From a virus, in IMG/VR virus record IMGVR_UViG_3300018019_000494: a stretch of DNA of 11,188 nucleotides; one strand, 5' to 3'. A program made the translations under genes and the position numbers. The first letter of the stretch is position 1. Each line of letters starts with the position of its first letter. Under the pieces are notes generated by a model that worked only from the letters and a program-made list of their open reading frames with translations, did no database searches and was not told the origin of the DNA. This document shows, in pieces, positions 3,015-11,188 of the stretch.

Positions 3015-3048
3015 CAGAGGGGGAGCCACCCGGCTCCCCCTTTCTTTT
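3015..3048 (+). terminator. Rho-independent terminator
   Basis: AGAGGGGGAGCC-ACCC-GGCTCCCCCT stem-loop followed by TTTCTTTT, directly after the SPFH gene stop. Confidence 0.8.
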
Positions 3049-3060
3049 AGGGGATGTTAT

Positions 3061-3231
3061 ATGAATGTCAACTGTCGCGGATGCGGCAAGGAAATTCCAG
3101 AAGATAAAGCATTGTATCGCGGTTCACCCGCTAAGAACCACGACGAGTTGGCCGGGCGCGATTGGAAGGACTTCGCAAAGTGCGAAGACTGTGACTACCA
3201 AGATTATAGCAACACCTATGGCGGGATGTGA
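3061..3231 (+). CDS. Small zinc-ribbon protein, 56 aa (CRGCGKE...CEDCDY)
   Basis: ATG with a GGGGA RBS 6 nt upstream. Two CxxC pairs. Confidence 0.65.
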   Translation: MNVNCRGCGKEIPEDKALYRGSPAKNHDELAGRDWKDFAKCEDCDYQDYSNTYGGM

Positions 3232-3452
3232 TCTGGCTGGCCTACGTCGGTTTCGTGCTCGTCTTCCTGTCCTACGCGAGGATTCCCAAGAGTCCCCGCT
3301 CCGGGTGGGCATACGGGGCGTTGGGGAACGTCCTTTACACTATTGCATTCCTGCCCTACCGTAGGGTAGAGTTGCTTTTAGCGCCCGTCGCATTCGCGGC
3401 GCTGTCCGCGTGGAACCTATGGCGAGAACTAAGGAAGACATCCTCGAACTGA
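3228..3452 (+). CDS. Small membrane protein with two predicted TM helices, GTG start
   Basis: GTGA overlap with the upstream stop. Hydrophobic stretches LAYVGFVLVFLSY and LLLAPVAFAALSAW. Confidence 0.55.
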   Translation: MIWLAYVGFVLVFLSYARIPKSPRSGWAYGALGNVLYTIAFLPYRRVELLLAPVAFAALSAWNLWRELRKTSSN

Positions 3453-4261
3453 TCCGGCACACGCCGTTCATGTGGCCCGACTCCGTCATCCACGTATTTA
3501 TATCCGGCTCCGCGATGCACGGCGCGACCGGAAGCCAGCCGACCGACACCGACATCTCCGGGGTGTACATTCAGCCCGTGGAGACGGTGCTGGGCATCCC
3601 GCAGAAGAATGAGGATGGCAAATGGTTCGATCCGGACACCCAGGTGTGGAGCAGCGCTGGCGACCACAGCAAGAACACCGCCGACGACATCGACGTGAAC
3701 CTGTACTCGCTCCGCAAGTGGGCGGGCATGGCGGCGAGTGGGAACACCACCGCCTTGGAGTTTCTGTTTGTGAAGAACATGGTCTGTGAGACTCCTTTGG
3801 AATATACCGTTTGGGATAAGTACATCCTGCCGAACACGCAGCACTTTATCTCCAAGCGTGCGGGCTTCCACTTCGCCGCCTTCGCGGAGGCGATGAAGCT
3901 GCGGCTGAGCGGCGGGAGCACGGGGAGGCACGGGCAAAGACCGGAGCTTGAGACCGAGTTCGGGTACGACGTCAAGGGGGCCATGCACATGCTGCGCATG
4001 CTGGGCGAGGGCATCGAGCTTATGACCACCGGCGCGATCACCCTGCCTTGCCCGGAAGCGGCGTTCCTGAAGGCCGTTCGGAACGGCGAGCTTTCATGGG
4101 CGCAGGTCGATGGGATCGCCGACGCGAGGTTCAGCATCCTTGGCGAGTGCCGCGAGAAGTCTTTCCTGCCTGACGAGATCGACCGGGCGGCGATCAGCAG
4201 GATCATCACCGACGCGCAGATCGAATTCTGGGGCTTGGTAGGCAGCAGGAGGGCGATATGA
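3410..4261 (+). CDS. Nucleotidyltransferase-fold protein of the Pol-beta superfamily. Possibly RlaP-like, that is, of the RNA-ligase-associated type.
   Basis: hG[GS]x(9-13)DxD motif in VFISGSAMHGATGSQPTDTDISGVYI, a later acidic IDVNL strand, then a helical C-terminal domain. The start is GTG 3410; the alternative ATG 3419 is equally plausible. Confidence 0.65.
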   Translation: MEPMARTKEDILELIRHTPFMWPDSVIHVFISGSAMHGATGSQPTDTDISGVYIQPVETVLGIPQKNEDGKWFDPDTQVWSSAGDHSKNTADDIDVNLYSLRKWAGMAASGNTTALEFLFVKNMVCETPLEYTVWDKYILPNTQHFISKRAGFHFAAFAEAMKLRLSGGSTGRHGQRPELETEFGYDVKGAMHMLRMLGEGIELMTTGAITLPCPEAAFLKAVRNGELSWAQVDGIADARFSILGECREKSFLPDEIDRAAISRIITDAQIEFWGLVGSRRAI

Positions 4262-4885: not shown

Positions 4886-5073
4886 TGACTTACTACACCC
4901 ACCGGCGCGGGCTTCAGTTCTTTCTGGAGGTCACGGGCATCGCCTTCGAGGGGCACTACCCCTTCAAGATCAGCAACGTGGGCGAACTAGCAATCGAGAG
5001 CATGGCATCGGCGGGCGGAGAAAGCTGGGTCTGGGACAAGCCGAGAGAGATTCCGAGGAGCATGGTCAATTGA
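4882..5073 (+). CDS. Hypothetical protein, 63 aa
   Basis: ATGATG start overlapping the upstream stop (ATGA). GC3 is high from this point. The longer listed ORF 4780.. has poor upstream coding character. Confidence 0.55.
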   Translation: MMTYYTHRRGLQFFLEVTGIAFEGHYPFKISNVGELAIESMASAGGESWVWDKPREIPRSMVN

Positions 5074-5210
5074 AAACCAAAGCGGAAAAGGTCTACGCTC
5101 TCTTCGAGAAGCACACGGGTTTCTGCGAGTTCTACCGCAAGGGTCATGGGGCATGCACCTGCGGGGCGTGCAAACCGTGCAGTGACAAGAACTGCGGGGA
5201 GCACCGATGA
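5070..5210 (+). CDS. Small Cys-rich (zinc-binding-like) protein, 46 aa, TTG start
   Basis: GAGGAG RBS at 5055-5060, about 9 nt before TTG 5070. CEFYRKGHGACTCGACKPCSDKNCGEH. The TGA forms an ATGA overlap with the next gene. Confidence 0.5.
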   Translation: MKTKAEKVYALFEKHTGFCEFYRKGHGACTCGACKPCSDKNCGEHR

Positions 5211-5434
5211 GCGACTGGAAGATCGGAGACCGCGTCCGCGTCGCCGAGGACTACACCTCGCCGTATCCCGAGACCGTCTGCCTGGACGGCACCATCACGG
5301 GCATCGAGACGCTGGAATTTGAGGGCGACCAACATTCGGATTCCGCGTTTGCACGGAGCATCGACATACCCGTGATCACGCTAGACGACGGAACGGTGCT
5401 GAGGGGTTACGAGTGTTGGTGGAGGCTACTGTGA
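5207..5434 (+). CDS. Hypothetical protein, 75 aa
   Basis: ATGA overlap. High GC3. Confidence 0.65.
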   Translation: MSDWKIGDRVRVAEDYTSPYPETVCLDGTITGIETLEFEGDQHSDSAFARSIDIPVITLDDGTVLRGYECWWRLL

Positions 5435-5514
5435 CGTTGGCTTCGATAGTGGTGGCGTGCTGCTGTGGCTGGATCGCTCGGGGATTCTTCGAGCGGTGGA
5501 TAGACAAGCGTTAA
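5431..5514 (+). CDS. Possible 27-aa TM micropeptide (VTLASIVVACCCGWIARGFFERWIDKR), GTG start
   Basis: GTGA overlap with the upstream stop. It fills the gap before the strong RBS of the 5534 gene. It is too short to score reliably. Confidence 0.3.
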   Translation: MTLASIVVACCCGWIARGFFERWIDKR

Positions 5515-7880: not shown

Positions 7881-8120
7881 ATGAGAAAATTCCTGTGCGC
7901 CATCGGGTTCCACGATCCTCAGATCGTCCGCAAGGTCTTTTGGGGAAACGTGCATCACGCCGAACTGAGATGCGCCTGTGGTAAGCGATTCGAGGGTTTC
8001 GTGGCTGGCTCCTTCGGGCGCGTGTACCCGGCAAAGACGCCGTCGGACTTCTGGGTCGCATACGACGCGGGGGCGTTGCTCGCGATCCCTCCATGCTGCG
8101 TCTCAAATTCCCAAAAATAG
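7881..8120 (+). CDS. Hypothetical Cys/His-containing protein, 79 aa
   Basis: ATG 1 nt after the upstream stop. High GC3. Confidence 0.65.
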   Translation: MRKFLCAIGFHDPQIVRKVFWGNVHHAELRCACGKRFEGFVAGSFGRVYPAKTPSDFWVAYDAGALLAIPPCCVSNSQK

Positions 8121-8123
8121 TTC

Positions 8124-8152
8124 TTGACAGTTTTCCAGTTTTTCGGTATCTT
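8124..8152 (+). promoter_or_regulatory. Sigma70-type promoter: -35 TTGACA (8124-8129), 17-bp spacer, -10 TATCTT (8147-8152)
   Basis: AT-rich intergenic island in a GC-rich genome. Perfect -35 hexamer with canonical spacing. Predicted TSS near 8159. Confidence 0.5.
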
Positions 8153-8167
8153 ATGTAGGTGAGAACA

Positions 8168-8269
8168 ATGACCTCAAGGAAACCCAACACGATTGCCCGA
8201 AAGGGCGCGAGCCAGTGGCGGAATCGCCATTCCGGCGCGGGTCTGTTCTCCGATGGGTGGGACGGCTAG
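8168..8269 (+). CDS. Possible 33-aa leader peptide or small protein (MTSRKPNTIARKGASQWRNRHSGAGLFSDGWDG) inside the structured leader
   Basis: AGGTGAG SD 6 nt upstream of ATG 8168. GC3 is about 70%. It overlaps the predicted antiterminator 5' strand. Confidence 0.3.
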   Translation: MTSRKPNTIARKGASQWRNRHSGAGLFSDGWDG

Positions 8270-8294
8270 GCAAGAGTCCCAAATCGAGTTCCAG

Positions 8295-8332
8295 ACCCGC
8301 CAGATGAGAATCTCGGCGGGTTTTTTGCTTTT
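8295..8332 (+). terminator. Intrinsic terminator-like hairpin with a U-tract; possibly a conditional attenuator
   Basis: ACCCGCC/GGCGGGT stem with an inner GAT/ATC stem and a GAGA loop, followed by TTTTTTGCTTTT. It ends 1 nt before tRNA-Trp. Confidence 0.55.
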
Positions 8333-8408
8333 AGGGGAGTAAGATAACCGGCAGTCGGTCGGTCTCCAAAACCGTACAGTGGCGGTTCAAATCCGTCCTC
8401 CCCTGCCA
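8333..8408 (+). tRNA. tRNA-Trp(CCA), 76 nt, CCA encoded
   Basis: Manual cloverleaf: acceptor AGGGGAG/CTCCCCT, U8, A14, G18G19, U33, anticodon CCA, T-loop TTCAAAT, G53-C61. The D-stem first pair and the 27-43 pair are weak (A/G, U/U). Confidence 0.7.
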
Positions 8409-8442
8409 AAGTTTTTGAAAGGAAAGTAGTTACAAGTTCTAT

Positions 8443-8519
8443 GGTGGCGGTCGTCTAGCGGCTAAGACACCTGACTGTGGATCAGGATAGCATGGGTCCG
8501 AATCCCATTCGCCACCCCA
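8443..8519 (+). tRNA. tRNA-His(GUG) with encoded G-1 and C73
   Basis: Acceptor GTGGCGG/TCGCCAC, G-1 at 8443 pairing with C73, perfect D and anticodon stems, loop CTGTGGA. The T-loop TCCGAAT has C at position 55. Confidence 0.8.
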
Positions 8520-8538
8520 ATTTTGAGGAGAGACGTTG

Positions 8539-8614
8539 GTCCGTGTAGCTCAGAAGGAAGAGCACCACGCTCCGAACGTGGAGGTCGCGAGTCCGAGTCT
8601 CGCCATGGACACCA
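8539..8614 (+). tRNA. tRNA-Arg(CCG)
   Basis: Acceptor GTCCGTG/CATGGAC, D-stem GCTC/GAGC, anticodon loop CTCCGAA, T-arm GCGAG-TCCGAGT-CTCGC (C55). Confidence 0.8.
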
Positions 8615-8618
8615 GTTT

Positions 8619-8825
8619 ATGATGACGTTCACGATCAGCGACGAGAAGGCGGCGCAGTACAAGGCGTGGAGCGAAGAGCACCGGAAGACGTGCGGGGCGC
8701 GACCGGATATGAGCATGGCCCTGTACAGCTTCGTGTTCACGCCGAACGGTCTTGGGGACGGCATATCGGTCAAATGCCCCTGCGGCGAGAGGGTATTCCT
8801 CGACGCCGGGGACGAGGATTTATAG
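8619..8825 (+). CDS. Small Cys-containing protein, 68 aa (MMTFTISDEKAAQYKAWSEEHRKTCG...CPCGERVF), located between tRNA genes
   Basis: Very high GC3. It starts 5 nt after tRNA-Arg(CCG) and its stop abuts the next tRNA (8826). The listed longer ORF 8523.. runs through two tRNAs and is rejected. Confidence 0.6.
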   Translation: MMTFTISDEKAAQYKAWSEEHRKTCGARPDMSMALYSFVFTPNGLGDGISVKCPCGERVFLDAGDEDL

Positions 8826-8903
8826 GCGCGTGTAGCTCAGCCGGAATAGAGCGCTATTCTGCGAAGATAGAGGTCGGCGGTCCGAGTCCGCCCATGCGCA
8901 CCA
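8826..8903 (+). tRNA. tRNA-Arg(GCG)
   Basis: Acceptor GCGCGTG/CATGCGC, D-arm GCTC-AGCCGGAATA-GAGC, anticodon loop CTGCGAA (stem with one G-U pair), T-arm GGCGG-TCCGAGT-CCGCC (C55). Confidence 0.75.
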
Positions 8904-8911
8904 AGTTTTTT

Positions 8912-8989
8912 GCCGGGCTAGCCATTGGACATGGCGGCACGCCTTCGAAACGTGCACGTTTGCGGGTTCGAATCCCGCGCCCGGTTCCA
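8912..8989 (+). tRNA. tRNA-Arg(UCG)-like with a non-canonical anticodon arm (9-nt loop CCTTCGAAA, or a 7-nt loop closed by a C/A mismatch)
   Basis: Acceptor GCCGGGC/GCCCGGT (G1-U72), T-arm GCGGG-TTCGAAT-CCCGC, anticodon stem GCACG/CGTGC. The anticodon assignment TCG is inferred from U33 placement. Followed by a T8 run. Confidence 0.55.
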
Positions 8990-8999
8990 GGTTTTTTTT

Positions 9000-9077
9000 G
9001 CGCCCGTAGCTCAGCGGAATAAGAGCATTGGTCTACGAAACCAAGGGTCGCGTGTTCGAATCACGCCGGGCGCACCA
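9000..9077 (+). tRNA. tRNA-Arg(ACG)
   Basis: Acceptor GCGCCCG/CGGGCGC, D-arm GCTC-AGCGGAATAA-GAGC, anticodon loop CTACGAA with a perfect stem, T-arm GCGTG-TTCGAAT-CACGC. Confidence 0.85.
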
Positions 9078-9081
9078 ACAT

Positions 9082-9168
9082 TGAGGTGTAGGGGAATCGG
9101 TAGACCCACCTGGCTGTTACCCAGGAGCCGAAAGGCACTTGCAGGTTCGAAGCCTGCCGCCTCAGCCA
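9082..9168 (+). tRNA. Atypical 87-nt class-II-like tRNA: Leu-like D-arm (GGG-GAATCGGTAGA-CCC), long variable arm, but anticodon GUU (Asn), U1-A72 and G73
   Basis: Acceptor TGAGGTG/CGCCTCA, perfect anticodon stem CCTGG/CCAGG with loop CTGTTAC, variable arm AGCCGAAAGGCACTT, T-arm GCAGG-TTCGAAG-CCTGC, CCA encoded. Confidence 0.55.
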
Positions 9169-9186
9169 GTTTAGAGGGAGGATTCA

Positions 9187-9518
<332 letters not shown>

Positions 9519-9523
9519 AGTTT

Positions 9524-9598
9524 GGGTCTGTAATTCAGCGGCTAGAAGCCCTCGCTCTTAACGAGGTAACGAGAGTTCGAGTCTCTCCAGACCCACCA
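9524..9598 (+). tRNA. tRNA-Lys(CUU), copy 1
   Basis: Acceptor GGGTCTG/CAGACCC, A73, anticodon stem CCTCG/CGAGG, loop CTCTTAA, T-arm GAGAG-TTCGAGT-CTCTC. The D-stem has one A/G mismatch. Confidence 0.75.
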
Positions 9599-9618
9599 GG
9601 CATCTGATAGAATAGGGC

Positions 9619-10020
9619 ATGAACAAGAAAGCTCAAGGCACTCGGTCAGTCGGTGCGGTGATGAGCCACTTCATCAAAGCAGGCAAAATCGTCTTGATGC
9701 CGATTGGAGACAATGAGCGATACGATTTCGTCATTGATGAGGATGGGCGGTTTCGGCGTATTCAAGTCAAAACGGGCAAGGTCAAGAACGGAGCGATAGA
9801 GTTTAGTACCGCCAGCACTAATCTTGAAAACGGTAAGTGGGTGAGACACGGTTATAGGGGACAGATTGACGATTTCGCAGTTTACTGCCCTAAACTCGAC
9901 AAGGTTTACCTTGTGCCTATAGACGAAGCAGGTGGTCAGACACACTGTTCTTTGCGGCTTGAGCCAGCGAAGAACGGTCAACAAAAGGGCATTAGGCTGG
10001 CTGAGCAGTACGAGGTTTAG
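9619..10020 (+). CDS. PD-(D/E)xK-fold nuclease-like protein (Hjc/YraN-UPF0102-like), 133 aa, with foreign composition
   Basis: GC is about 50% and GC3 about 55%, versus about 85% GC3 in the flanking genes. The pattern G..G...FIKAGKIVL...DFVID-x7-RIQVKTGK resembles the core of YraN/Hjc-like nucleases. Its stop codon shares its last base with tRNA-Lys copy 2. Confidence 0.6.
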   Translation: MNKKAQGTRSVGAVMSHFIKAGKIVLMPIGDNERYDFVIDEDGRFRRIQVKTGKVKNGAIEFSTASTNLENGKWVRHGYRGQIDDFAVYCPKLDKVYLVPIDEAGGQTHCSLRLEPAKNGQQKGIRLAEQYEV

Positions 10021-10095
10021 GGCTACTAACTCAACTGGTAGAGTAGCAGACTCTTAATCTGCGAGTTCGGGGTTCGAGTCCCCGGTGGCCCACCA
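10020..10095 (+). tRNA. tRNA-Lys(CUU), copy 2, with a different sequence from copy 1
   Basis: Acceptor GGGCTAC/GTGGCCC, D-arm ACTC-AACTGGTA-GAGT, anticodon stem GCAGA/TCTGC, loop CTCTTAA, T-arm CGGGG-TTCGAGT-CCCCG, A73. Confidence 0.8.
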
Positions 10096-10134
10096 AGTTT
10101 CCGGGTATTAGAACTCTTAGGATAGGAGGTCAGC

Positions 10135-10680
10135 ATGCCCGACGTACTGGTTCTCGACATGAACTACCGCCCTGTCGGCTTCAAGTCCTGGCAGGACGCG
10201 ATCACGAACGTGTGGAAGGAGCGGGCCATCGTCGTCAAGGAGGACGAGTCCGGCCTGAAGCTCCACTCCCCGTCGTTCGAGGTCGGGATGCCGAGGGTGA
10301 TCCGCGTGCGCAACGCCTGGGTGAAGCGGCGCAAGACATCCGTGCCGTTCTCGCGGCGCAACCTGTACGTCCGCGACGGCGGCGAGTGCCAGTACTGCGG
10401 TAGGCACCTCAAGCTGGAGGAGTACACCCTCGATCACGTGATCCCGCGTTCGCAGGGCGGCGTGAGTTCGTGGGTCAACATGGTCCTCGCCTGCATGCGC
10501 TGCAACAAGCACAAGGCGGGCCGGACGCCGCAGCAGGCAGGGATGCCCCTCCTGCACAAGCCCGTCGTCCCGAAGGTGGACGACCCGAAGTACAACTTCA
10601 AGCTCCACATCCGCAAGATGCGGCCCGAGTGGAAAGAATGGGAGAATTTCCTTTACTGGAATATCGAGCTTGACGAGTAG
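10135..10680 (+). CDS. HNH endonuclease, 181 aa
   Basis: TAGGAGGT RBS. Motifs CQYCG...LDHVIPRSQGG...N...CMRCNKHK (the HNH zinc-finger core). Confidence 0.8.
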   Translation: MPDVLVLDMNYRPVGFKSWQDAITNVWKERAIVVKEDESGLKLHSPSFEVGMPRVIRVRNAWVKRRKTSVPFSRRNLYVRDGGECQYCGRHLKLEEYTLDHVIPRSQGGVSSWVNMVLACMRCNKHKAGRTPQQAGMPLLHKPVVPKVDDPKYNFKLHIRKMRPEWKEWENFLYWNIELDE

Positions 10681-10694
10681 ATCAAGCGACAAGC

Positions 10695-10718
10695 CCCGGA
10701 GGAGCAACCCTCCTCCGG
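10695..10718 (+). terminator. Strong GC hairpin (CCCGGAGGAG-CAAC-CTCCTCCGGG) without a good U-tract; a possible terminator or processing/stability element
   Basis: Perfect 10-bp stem, 14 nt after the HNH stop and 9 nt before tRNA-Arg(CCU). Confidence 0.35.
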
Positions 10719-10727
10719 GCGAAATTT

Positions 10728-10805
10728 GGCCCCGTAGCTCAGCGGAATAAGAGCGACGCACTCCTAACGCGTAGGTCACTGGTCCGAATCCAGTCGGGGT
10801 CACCA
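10728..10805 (+). tRNA. tRNA-Arg(CCU)
   Basis: Acceptor GGCCCCG/CGGGGTC, D-arm identical to that of Arg(ACG), anticodon loop CTCCTAA with an A31/C39 mismatch, T-arm ACTGG-TCCGAAT-CCAGT (C55). Confidence 0.7.
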
Positions 10806-10818
10806 ATTTTTGAGTTGT

Positions 10819-10892
10819 TGCCTCCTCGTCCAACGGTAGGACACGGGTCTCTGGAACCCGGTATCGCGGTTCGAATCCTCGGGAGGCAGCCA
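10819..10892 (+). tRNA. tRNA-Gln(CUG), U1-A72, G73
   Basis: Acceptor TGCCTCC/GGAGGCA, D-arm GTCC-AACGGTA-GGAC, anticodon stem CGGGT/ACCCG, loop CTCTGGA, T-loop TTCGAAT (the T-stem has one C/U mismatch). Confidence 0.75.
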
Positions 10893-10899
10893 AATTTGC

Positions 10900-10928
10900 T
10901 GGACAATGCCGCGAAAATGCGGTATAAT
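10900..10928 (+). promoter_or_regulatory. Sigma70-type promoter: -35 TGGACA, 17-bp spacer, perfect -10 TATAAT (10923-10928); predicted TSS at or next to the ATG (leaderless)
   Basis: AT-rich island directly after tRNA-Gln. Consensus hexamers with optimal spacing. The ATG at 10936 lies 7-8 nt after the -10 element. Confidence 0.6.
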
Positions 10929-10935
10929 GATCAGA

Positions 10936-11115
10936 ATGAACTCGACGCTGAAGACGATCCTGAAGGCCGCGGCGATAGCGGTCGTGCCGGGGCTGGGCGC
11001 TTTCTGGCTGTTAAGCAGGCTCGCGAAAGAGCACGAGCGGCAGGAGTTCAGGGAGTACATCCGCAAGACCTACGGGAAGGGAAGCAAGTACGAGAACGAA
11101 AATGTTGAGCCTTAG
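10936..11115 (+). CDS. Small membrane protein, 59 aa (MNSTLKTILKAAAIAVVPGLGAFWLLSRL...), probably translated from a leaderless mRNA
   Basis: There is no SD and no room for a 5' UTR downstream of the promoter. TM helix. The upstream part of the listed ORF 10906.. would lie in the promoter. Confidence 0.55.
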   Translation: MNSTLKTILKAAAIAVVPGLGAFWLLSRLAKEHERQEFREYIRKTYGKGSKYENENVEP

Positions 11116-11188
11116 CATGAACGCGGACACGCTCTTCAACGTCCTCAGCGGCGTTGTGATGCTTCTCTCCGTCTACGCCTTCTACCAA
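11107..11188 (+). CDS. 5' end of a membrane protein gene (MNADTLFNVLSGVVMLLSVYAFYQ...), truncated by the window edge
   Basis: ATG 11107 overlaps the end of the upstream gene by 9 nt. Hydrophobic N-terminus. The frame is open to the window end. Confidence 0.45.

Follow-up and report, generated by a model that had tools for sequence, protein, structure and literature searches.

A probable homing endonuclease gene of the I-Ssp6803I type between two adjacent tRNA-Lys genes of a phage tRNA array

We analysed an 11,188-nucleotide stretch of viral DNA (IMG/VR record IMGVR_UViG_3300018019_000494; hereafter, the window), in which an open reading frame (ORF) encoding a 133-aa protein is enclosed by two tRNA genes with the same anticodon. 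All of the features at this locus lie on the + strand. The left edge of the proposed insertion site is a tRNA-Lys(CUU) gene at 9524-9598 (tRNA-Lys number 1; identified by ARAGORN, and scoring 61.3 bits in Rfam), which is followed by an inter-tRNA spacer of 20 nt at 9599-9618 (ggcatctgatagaatagggc) and then by the ORF at 9619-10020. The right edge is a second tRNA-Lys(CUU) gene at 10020-10095 (tRNA-Lys number 2; ARAGORN, Rfam 63.7 bits). The 421 nt separating the tRNA genes consist of the spacer and the ORF, and the G of the ORF's TAG stop codon is also base 1 of tRNA-Lys number 2. Both tRNA genes are complete and have cloverleaf folds; they are 58% identical to each other in a MAFFT alignment, with number 1 having a non-canonical D-arm and number 2 being of the canonical type. 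An earlier reading of the locus, made from the sequence alone, had described this pair of non-identical tRNA genes and the shared G correctly. Rfam searches of positions 8000-11188 at E <= 1 returned tRNAs only, and the two tRNA genes are separate and complete, which rules out both a group I intron and a split tRNA. The ORF does not occupy the niche of a group I intron-encoded tRNA endonuclease, within an intron that interrupts the anticodon loop. Rather, it is free-standing, as the sequence-only reading had suggested, lies outside of any intron, and leaves the neighbouring tRNA genes intact.

The ORF also stands out in its composition. Its GC content is 0.494 and its GC content at third codon positions (GC3) is 0.549, compared to GC3 values of 0.73-0.92 (mean 0.833, sd 0.053) for the nine other genes of the window, which places the ORF at z = -5.3. 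The low GC3 reported by the sequence-only reading was thus reproduced, and the sliding-window plot that it proposed places the two lowest 300-nt windows of the whole 11 kb (GC 0.483 and 0.487) on the ORF. A simple sigma-70 scan of the insertion site found no canonical promoter or terminator, and the ORF lacks a good Shine-Dalgarno sequence. The spacer does contain TGATAGAAT, an extended -10 promoter-like element ending 5 nt upstream of the ATG, to which we would ascribe a promoter role only by inference.

The protein encoded by the ORF belongs to a recognisable nuclease family. It matches Pfam family PF11645 (PDDEXK_5) with 128.2 bits (cut-off 26.1; E = 2.9e-37), its residues 1-132 aligning to positions 1-136 of the 138 in the profile, and the same domain is present in 51 of its 51 database homologues. 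PF11645 corresponds to the 'ssp6803i' group of the PD-(D/E)XK superfamily (PMC3424549). A sequence search of the Protein Data Bank (PDB) returned a single match, the homing endonuclease I-Ssp6803I (2OST; E = 5e-9), at an identity of only ~25%. When we modelled the protein with AlphaFold2 (pLDDT 92.2, pTM 0.85), chains of 2OST made up the top four Foldseek matches (TM 0.66-0.78, with 0.76-0.78 for the best match, and E down to 9e-10). No NCBIfam model matches the protein. Its sole match in PADLOC is the 'HEase' (homing endonuclease) model, at 4e-10, and the possibility that it is a nuclease of a defence system was rejected on this basis. The sequence-only reading had proposed a homing-type PD-(D/E)xK nuclease from a hydrophobic strand ending in Asp (YDFVID) and a QVK motif, and the profile and fold searches bear this out. 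Its likening of the protein to YraN and Hjc fared less well, as neither gives a Pfam match at E <= 1, and the Hjc resolvases, which come next after the 2OST chains in Foldseek with TM of ~0.4-0.5, are only distant relatives in fold. Judged by its sequence and its predicted structure, the ORF is clearly an intact member of the I-Ssp6803I-type homing endonuclease family.

The QVK motif stands where the textbook motif is ExK, and the sequence-only reading raised the possibility that an E-to-Q change had altered catalysis. If this were so, the ORF could be an inactivated relic, or its product could have been recruited to bind DNA or RNA or to process tRNAs; the tRNA splicing endonuclease is a member of the same superfamily (PMC3424549), and in helix 1 the clade of the ORF has a Val at a position where most family members have a Glu and I-Ssp6803I has a Gln. 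However, P28, D36, Q49, and K51 are all among 12 positions that are invariant across 23 aligned homologues, and D36, Q49, and K51, which we regard as the putative catalytic residues, align with the YDLVFD...VQVK of I-Ssp6803I. Because Q49 is invariant and the active I-Ssp6803I itself has QVK, this is the native motif of the family, and not an inactivating substitution. The ORF is, moreover, full length, keeps 12 of the 12 invariant positions, and is predicted to adopt its fold with confidence (pLDDT 92), while its sporadic distribution among phages (described below) speaks against an essential role in processing the array. We consider a relic or recruited factor very improbable.

A second endonuclease gene, of the HNH type, lies within the same tRNA array at 10135-10680 (Pfam HNH, E = 3e-14; GC3 0.92). 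We used this neighbour to scan metagenomes for relatives of the window phage and fetched 80 loci, ~10 of which span the site between the two tRNA-Lys genes. In ~30 of the loci, which we designate by L numbers, the tRNA array is syntenic with that of the window, with a shared order of ...Arg x4, Asn, Asn, Lys(ctt), Lys(ctt), HNH, Arg(cct), Gln(ctg), Lys(ttt), Lys(ttt). The HNH proteins of these ~30 relatives are 54-83% identical to that of the window, and because its array position is kept among them, we take the HNH gene to have resided there for a long time, rather than to be a recently mobile gene. Some of the syntenic loci sit on contigs of 155-463 kb, so the relatives of the window phage are probably a group of jumbo phages; the host of the insertion is a large soil or peat phage. 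Other sources of relatives were less informative. GenBank phages include no close relatives, with matches to the tRNAs alone, and the IMG/VR relatives found through the HNH gene or a 399-aa gene were set aside as distant (30-38% identity) and without a comparable array, their retrieved flanks having no more than a single tRNA call.

In several of the relatives, the two Lys(CTT) genes are found side by side without the ORF, separated by 24 nt in L054, 25 nt in L073, 27 nt in L074, 42 nt in L076, and 5 nt in L065 and L083. The pairs in L054, L073, L074, L076, and L065 are located upstream of the orthologous HNH gene. Searching with the family's hidden Markov model (HMM), we found no PF11645 gene at the inter-Lys site in 80 of the 80 HNH-fetched loci, and the ORF is therefore polymorphic for presence and absence at one locus among related genomes. 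Because related phages with the same array have the adjacent pair and no ORF, we conclude that the tRNA-Lys pair is ancestral. Within these pairs, the first Lys is always of the non-canonical D-arm type and the second of the canonical type, as in the window. Colinearity between the window and L076 extends across tRNA-Asn and tRNA-Lys number 1 to the CCA end of the latter, and resumes at tRNA-Lys number 2, from where it continues into the HNH leader. The first Lys(CTT) genes of L076 and L051, two loci without the endonuclease gene, are 84% and 79% identical, respectively, to tRNA-Lys number 1. Read by eye, the window spacer and the empty-site spacer of L054 (tctgatagaataggg vs tgtggtattgtaggg) agree at 10 of 15 bases. 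The retained spacer and the colinear flanks thus show that the inserted DNA is essentially the ORF alone (~401 nt), placed after the kept spacer and flush against the 5' end of tRNA-Lys number 2. The insertion into a tRNA array that the sequence-only reading had postulated is accordingly seen in the comparison it called for, bounded on the left by the spacer and on the right by the start of tRNA-Lys number 2.

The sole PF11645 match among the 80 HNH-fetched loci is a partial gene at a different array position, in L069 (2080-2221), where it follows a tRNA-Arg(TCT) gene and a small ORF. It belongs to the clade of the window ORF (64% identity over 36 aa). L067, which does not have this gene, is 91% identical to L069 up to a sharp breakpoint at L069 position 2080 (L067:2082), making this a second copy of a PF11645 gene, elsewhere in the array, that is polymorphic for presence and absence.

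The inter-Lys slot is also occupied by other genes in other relatives. It holds an R2K-clade ATP-grasp gene in L051 (1686-2657) and L075 (2329-3141), small ORFs in L070 (661-957) and L058 (3103-3279), and in L072 (3529-3899) a sequence without a Pfam match that, by eye, has the look of a frameshifted HNH gene. Each of these five slot ORFs reads into the second tRNA-Lys gene at its 5' end. The slot between the two tRNA-Lys genes is an insertion hotspot.

The three nearest distinct homologues of the ORF, at 61%, 60%, and 56% identity, come from two unrelated phage groups, and all of them run into a downstream tRNA-Lys(CTT) gene: L011 (ORF 5001-5420, tRNA 5394-5469), L013 (ORF 5001-5402, tRNA 5393-5469), and L017 (ORF 3040-3438, tRNA 3429-3504). 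L011 and L013 are from phages of lower GC content (43-46%) that have no other gene in common with the window phage, and L017 shares only the endonuclease and HNH genes with it. In L013 and L017, the stop codon of the endonuclease gene is formed by T8-A9-G10 of the tRNA read as TAG, and L017 shows TGGTATTAT in a geometry matching that of the -10-like element in the window spacer. The DNA homology among the window, L011, L013, and L017 extends from the ATG to the CCA end of the tRNA and no further. tRNA-Lys(CUU) is thus the constant partner of this endonuclease clade, including in unrelated phages of lower GC content.

Such a constant partnership could mean that the endonuclease gene travelled with its downstream tRNA-Lys(CUU) partner as a two-gene mobile cassette, the arrival of which made the tRNA-Lys gene a duplicate; co-acquisition of one tRNA-Lys had been entertained in the sequence-only reading. 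All 4 of the 4 clade members are indeed fused to their downstream tRNA-Lys(CTT), and the block of homology takes in both genes. In addition, tRNA-Lys number 2 shares 79% identity with L011_d, the tRNA linked to the endonuclease gene in L011, but only 63-70% with the tRNAs at position 2 in the closest HNH relatives, L051-L056. Yet it is equally near (79%) to L073_2, which has no endonuclease gene beside it, and tRNA identities among the relatives scatter from 59 to 92% in any case, which also bears on any comparison meant to reveal co-conversion or a chimera in tRNA-Lys number 2. Two Lys(CTT) genes that match those of the window in order and in sequence type are already present in ~10 relatives lacking the endonuclease gene, and both the spacer downstream of tRNA-Lys number 2 and the HNH gene are orthologous. 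These observations make an incoming cassette unlikely, and co-acquisition is not supported, as the pair is already there where the gene is missing. A partial replacement of the pre-existing tRNA-Lys number 2 by co-conversion is possible. On inspecting the alignment of endonuclease-linked tRNA-Lys genes for a signature of target immunity, we saw no consistent difference in the anticodon stem or the D-stem.

We next consider when the gene arrived. The sequence-only reading had taken the low GC3 as a sign of recent acquisition. Comparing members of the clade with those of their neighbours that were checked, we found a GC3 of 0.55 vs 0.83 in the window, and of 0.54 vs 0.50-0.75, 0.35 vs 0.51-0.55, and 0.40 vs 0.47-0.58 in the others. 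The clade is therefore below most of the checked neighbouring genes in 4 of 4 phage backgrounds, and we rejected GC3 as a clock for recent transfer. Nor does the phage's own population point to recency. The ORF protein is unchanged on five JGI metagenome contigs, each of which is 99.96-100% identical to the window. A further view is given by 15 contigs from JGI, ENA, and Logan samples that carry an identical neighbouring HNH gene: the 10 places read among them are all 100% identical to the window over the overlap, and in 9 of the 9 that reach the ORF site the ORF is present and 100% identical, so the gene is fixed there. Gene calls of 119 aa for the ORF reflect alternative start choices only, and a 95% homologue (P0001) proved to be the same phage on a 548-nt contig, adding no information.

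Altogether, we think it likely that the ORF is an intact, selfish homing endonuclease gene of the I-Ssp6803I type that inserted exactly between two already adjacent tRNA-Lys genes. Several observations weigh against this interpretation, in addition to the Val in helix 1 noted above. The population of the phage contains no variant without the gene among the 9 places reaching the ORF site, and the nearest relatives that do lack it are only 81-83% identical in the HNH protein, which is too diverged for co-conversion tracts to be read. The Lys-endonuclease-Lys arrangement is also found in L017, the endonuclease of which is only 56% identical to that of the window. This could be the result of independent homing into the same site, or of an old insertion followed by many losses. 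We favour an independent, later invasion, because the GC3 of the ORF is strongly unameliorated beside an HNH gene with a GC3 of 0.92. Finally, site-specific cleavage, the target site, and gene conversion are all predicted for the ORF by analogy.

By that analogy, the insertion could have come about as follows. In a mixed infection, the enzyme would cut the allele without the gene at or near the junction of the spacer and tRNA-Lys. It may do so as a tetramer acting on a long pseudo-palindromic site, as does I-Ssp6803I, which is a tetramer with a 23-bp pseudo-palindromic target (PMC3384342). Recombinational repair templated by the genome carrying the gene would then copy the gene in, and the occupied allele would be immune because the insertion splits the target site. 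The gene might be transcribed with the tRNA precursor or from the -10-like element of the spacer. Its expression is probably low: translation would be restrained by the poor ribosome-binding site, and expression would be further limited by RNase P, the cut of which at the 5' end of tRNA-Lys number 2 would fall inside the stop codon (UA|G).

Several known systems help to place the ORF. I-Ssp6803I has the family, the fold, and the D...QxK motif in common with the ORF protein, and both are tied to a tRNA gene. The gene of I-Ssp6803I, however, sits in a group I intron in the anticodon loop of the Synechocystis tRNA-fMet gene, whereas the ORF is intron-free and located at the 5' edge of tRNA-Lys(CUU) in a phage array. 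PF11645 genes have also been found in tRNA-fMet introns (PMC13011429). In its genomic niche, and presumably in its lifestyle, the closest analogue is SegB of T4 and T6, which is likewise encoded by a free-standing gene in a phage tRNA cluster and is absent from related phages. SegB targets the DNA of tRNA genes, at the T-psi-C motif in their 3' ends (PMC2330249, PMC13096335), and the last codon and stop codon of segB are parted by the maturation of tRNA-Arg, which has been proposed as a control on its expression (PMC2330249). The likeness does not extend to the protein, SegB being a GIY-YIG enzyme with NUMOD3 in contrast to the PD-(D/E)XK fold of the ORF, nor to the tRNA end concerned: SegB recognises 3' ends, whereas the constant neighbour of the ORF is the 5' end of one particular tRNA. 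The F-Tfl endonucleases of phage T5 are of other nuclease families than PF11645. The genes for F-TflI, F-TflII, and related endonucleases likewise lie in the T5 tRNA cluster (cited in PMC2330249).

The parallel with SegB suggests another reason why such a gene might be kept, namely that the nuclease benefits the phage by excluding co-infecting relatives or by promoting recombination or amplification of tRNA genes, so that it is not purely selfish. SegB causes the tRNA region to be inherited preferentially and, under defence pressure, to undergo segmental amplification (PMC2330249, PMC13096335); the window ORF is intact and present in all 9 places that reach its site, and its phage group is rich in duplicated same-anticodon tRNAs. 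Such doublets nonetheless occur without the gene, which is absent from this site in all 80 of the HNH-fetched loci and has a persistently atypical codon composition, and a benefit of this kind would be compatible with homing and not exclusive of it. We regard retention for the phage's benefit as quite unlikely, and continue to prefer selfish homing.

How general is the association with tRNA genes? We assembled 33 distinct PF11645 loci, consisting of the window, L011, L013, L017, and 29 loci that were retrieved from IMG/VR by a single conserved peptide pattern and so sample part of the family. There is a tRNA gene within 60 nt in 26 of these 33 loci, and in 18 of the 33 a same-strand tRNA gene overlaps the endonuclease gene or lies no more than 30 nt downstream of it, the overlap being exactly 10 nt in seven loci. 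The clades track tRNA type, as seen for the Lys(CTT) clade and for three loci with Thr(GGT), and tRNA-Asn(GTT) is a recurring neighbour in several clades. Cultured phages fit this pattern: a PF11645 gene overlaps tRNA-Ile by 7 nt in Pectobacterium phage My1 and tRNA-Val by 21 nt in Synechococcus phage Sf-FR1, it lies 20 nt after a tRNA gene in Salmonella phage SM5, and in Enterococcus phage EFP01 a tRNA-Arg gene is found 137 nt downstream of it. In L137, the PF11645 gene overlaps tRNA-Asn by 21 nt. An exception is gene 5.3 of phage T7, which like the ORF is a free-standing phage member of PF11645, but has no adjoining tRNA. A report of 80 stand-alone PDDEXK_5 genes in Jug jumbo phages does not mention tRNAs (PMC12880540), and in the literature we covered, which was incomplete, we found no account linking PF11645/PDDEXK_5 genes with tRNA arrays. 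We tentatively suggest that the PF11645 lineage may have specialised in tRNA genes, with every clade homing to the 5' edge of one tRNA (here, tRNA-Lys(CUU)) and its ORF running into that tRNA. Its members might then drive the remodelling of arrays and the exchange of tRNA alleles between unrelated phages, with RNase P gating their expression.

Free-standing homing endonucleases encoded in phage tRNA clusters are known already, as is this fold, and in that sense the ORF adds a member to a known class. It does provide a clean natural case of occupied and empty sites for an I-Ssp6803I-type enzyme that is free-standing in a tRNA array, comparable to SegB despite the difference in fold. Annotations should call the ORF a homing endonuclease, and not a hypothetical protein or a defective nuclease, and should not attribute the tRNA-Lys pair to the insertion. 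The most interesting lead is the wider regularity, namely that genes of the PF11645 family adjoin particular tRNA genes at their 5' ends. These recurrent junctions supply testable candidate target sites for a family with only one characterised member, and the regularity, if confirmed, would connect the evolution of tRNA arrays in phages with homing endonucleases.

Two further observations concern PF11645 genes. A Ktedonobacteraceae genome contains two or three tandem PF11645 paralogues (L135, 2501-3458; L136, 504-1933), which in L136 end 9 nt before an opposite-strand tRNA-Lys(TTT) gene; we detected no group I intron with these paralogues, despite their NCBI name, 'group I intron-associated'. 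In L133 (OM681507.1, 113606-114816), the two genes flanking the endonuclease are both annotated as 'tRNA-Met-CAT', while ARAGORN identifies them as tRNA-Asn(GTT) and tRNA-Tyr(GTA), and the annotation of OM681507.1 is probably wrong.

The tRNA array surrounding the ORF has several further features. Adjacent, non-identical tRNA doublets with the same anticodon recur through the window (8333-10892) and through L051-L083, and include His/His, Asn/Asn, Lys-CTT/CTT, Lys-TTT/TTT, and Phe/Phe, along with doublets of Met, Trp, and Gln. The Lys(CTT) doublet pairs a canonical copy with one whose D-arm is odd. One idea is that these doublets provide an escape from defences that target tRNAs. The 87-nt tRNA-Asn(GTT) gene at 9082-9168 has a long variable arm resembling that of class II tRNAs (stem GCC/GGC), and a normal tRNA-Asn(GTT) gene of 75 nt is located downstream at 9444-9518. 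The relatives have tRNAs of 86-89 nt that are called as Asn(GTT), Gln(CTG), Arg(ACG), and Trp, a length that is unusual for these identities. Between the two tRNA-Asn genes, at 9187-9453, is the stretch of highest GC content in the window (0.68-0.70), in which gene callers are split as to strand (88 aa on the + strand, or 72-76 aa on the - strand) and neither product has a Pfam match. Across 8409-10900, a short U-rich trailer (typically AGTTT, ATTTT, or GTTT) comes after most of the array tRNAs, tRNA-Lys number 1 departing most clearly from this rule. In addition, GTATT(G/A) occurs ~10 nt after the CCA end in several spacers, both of the window and of its relatives, and may be a signal for processing or a promoter.

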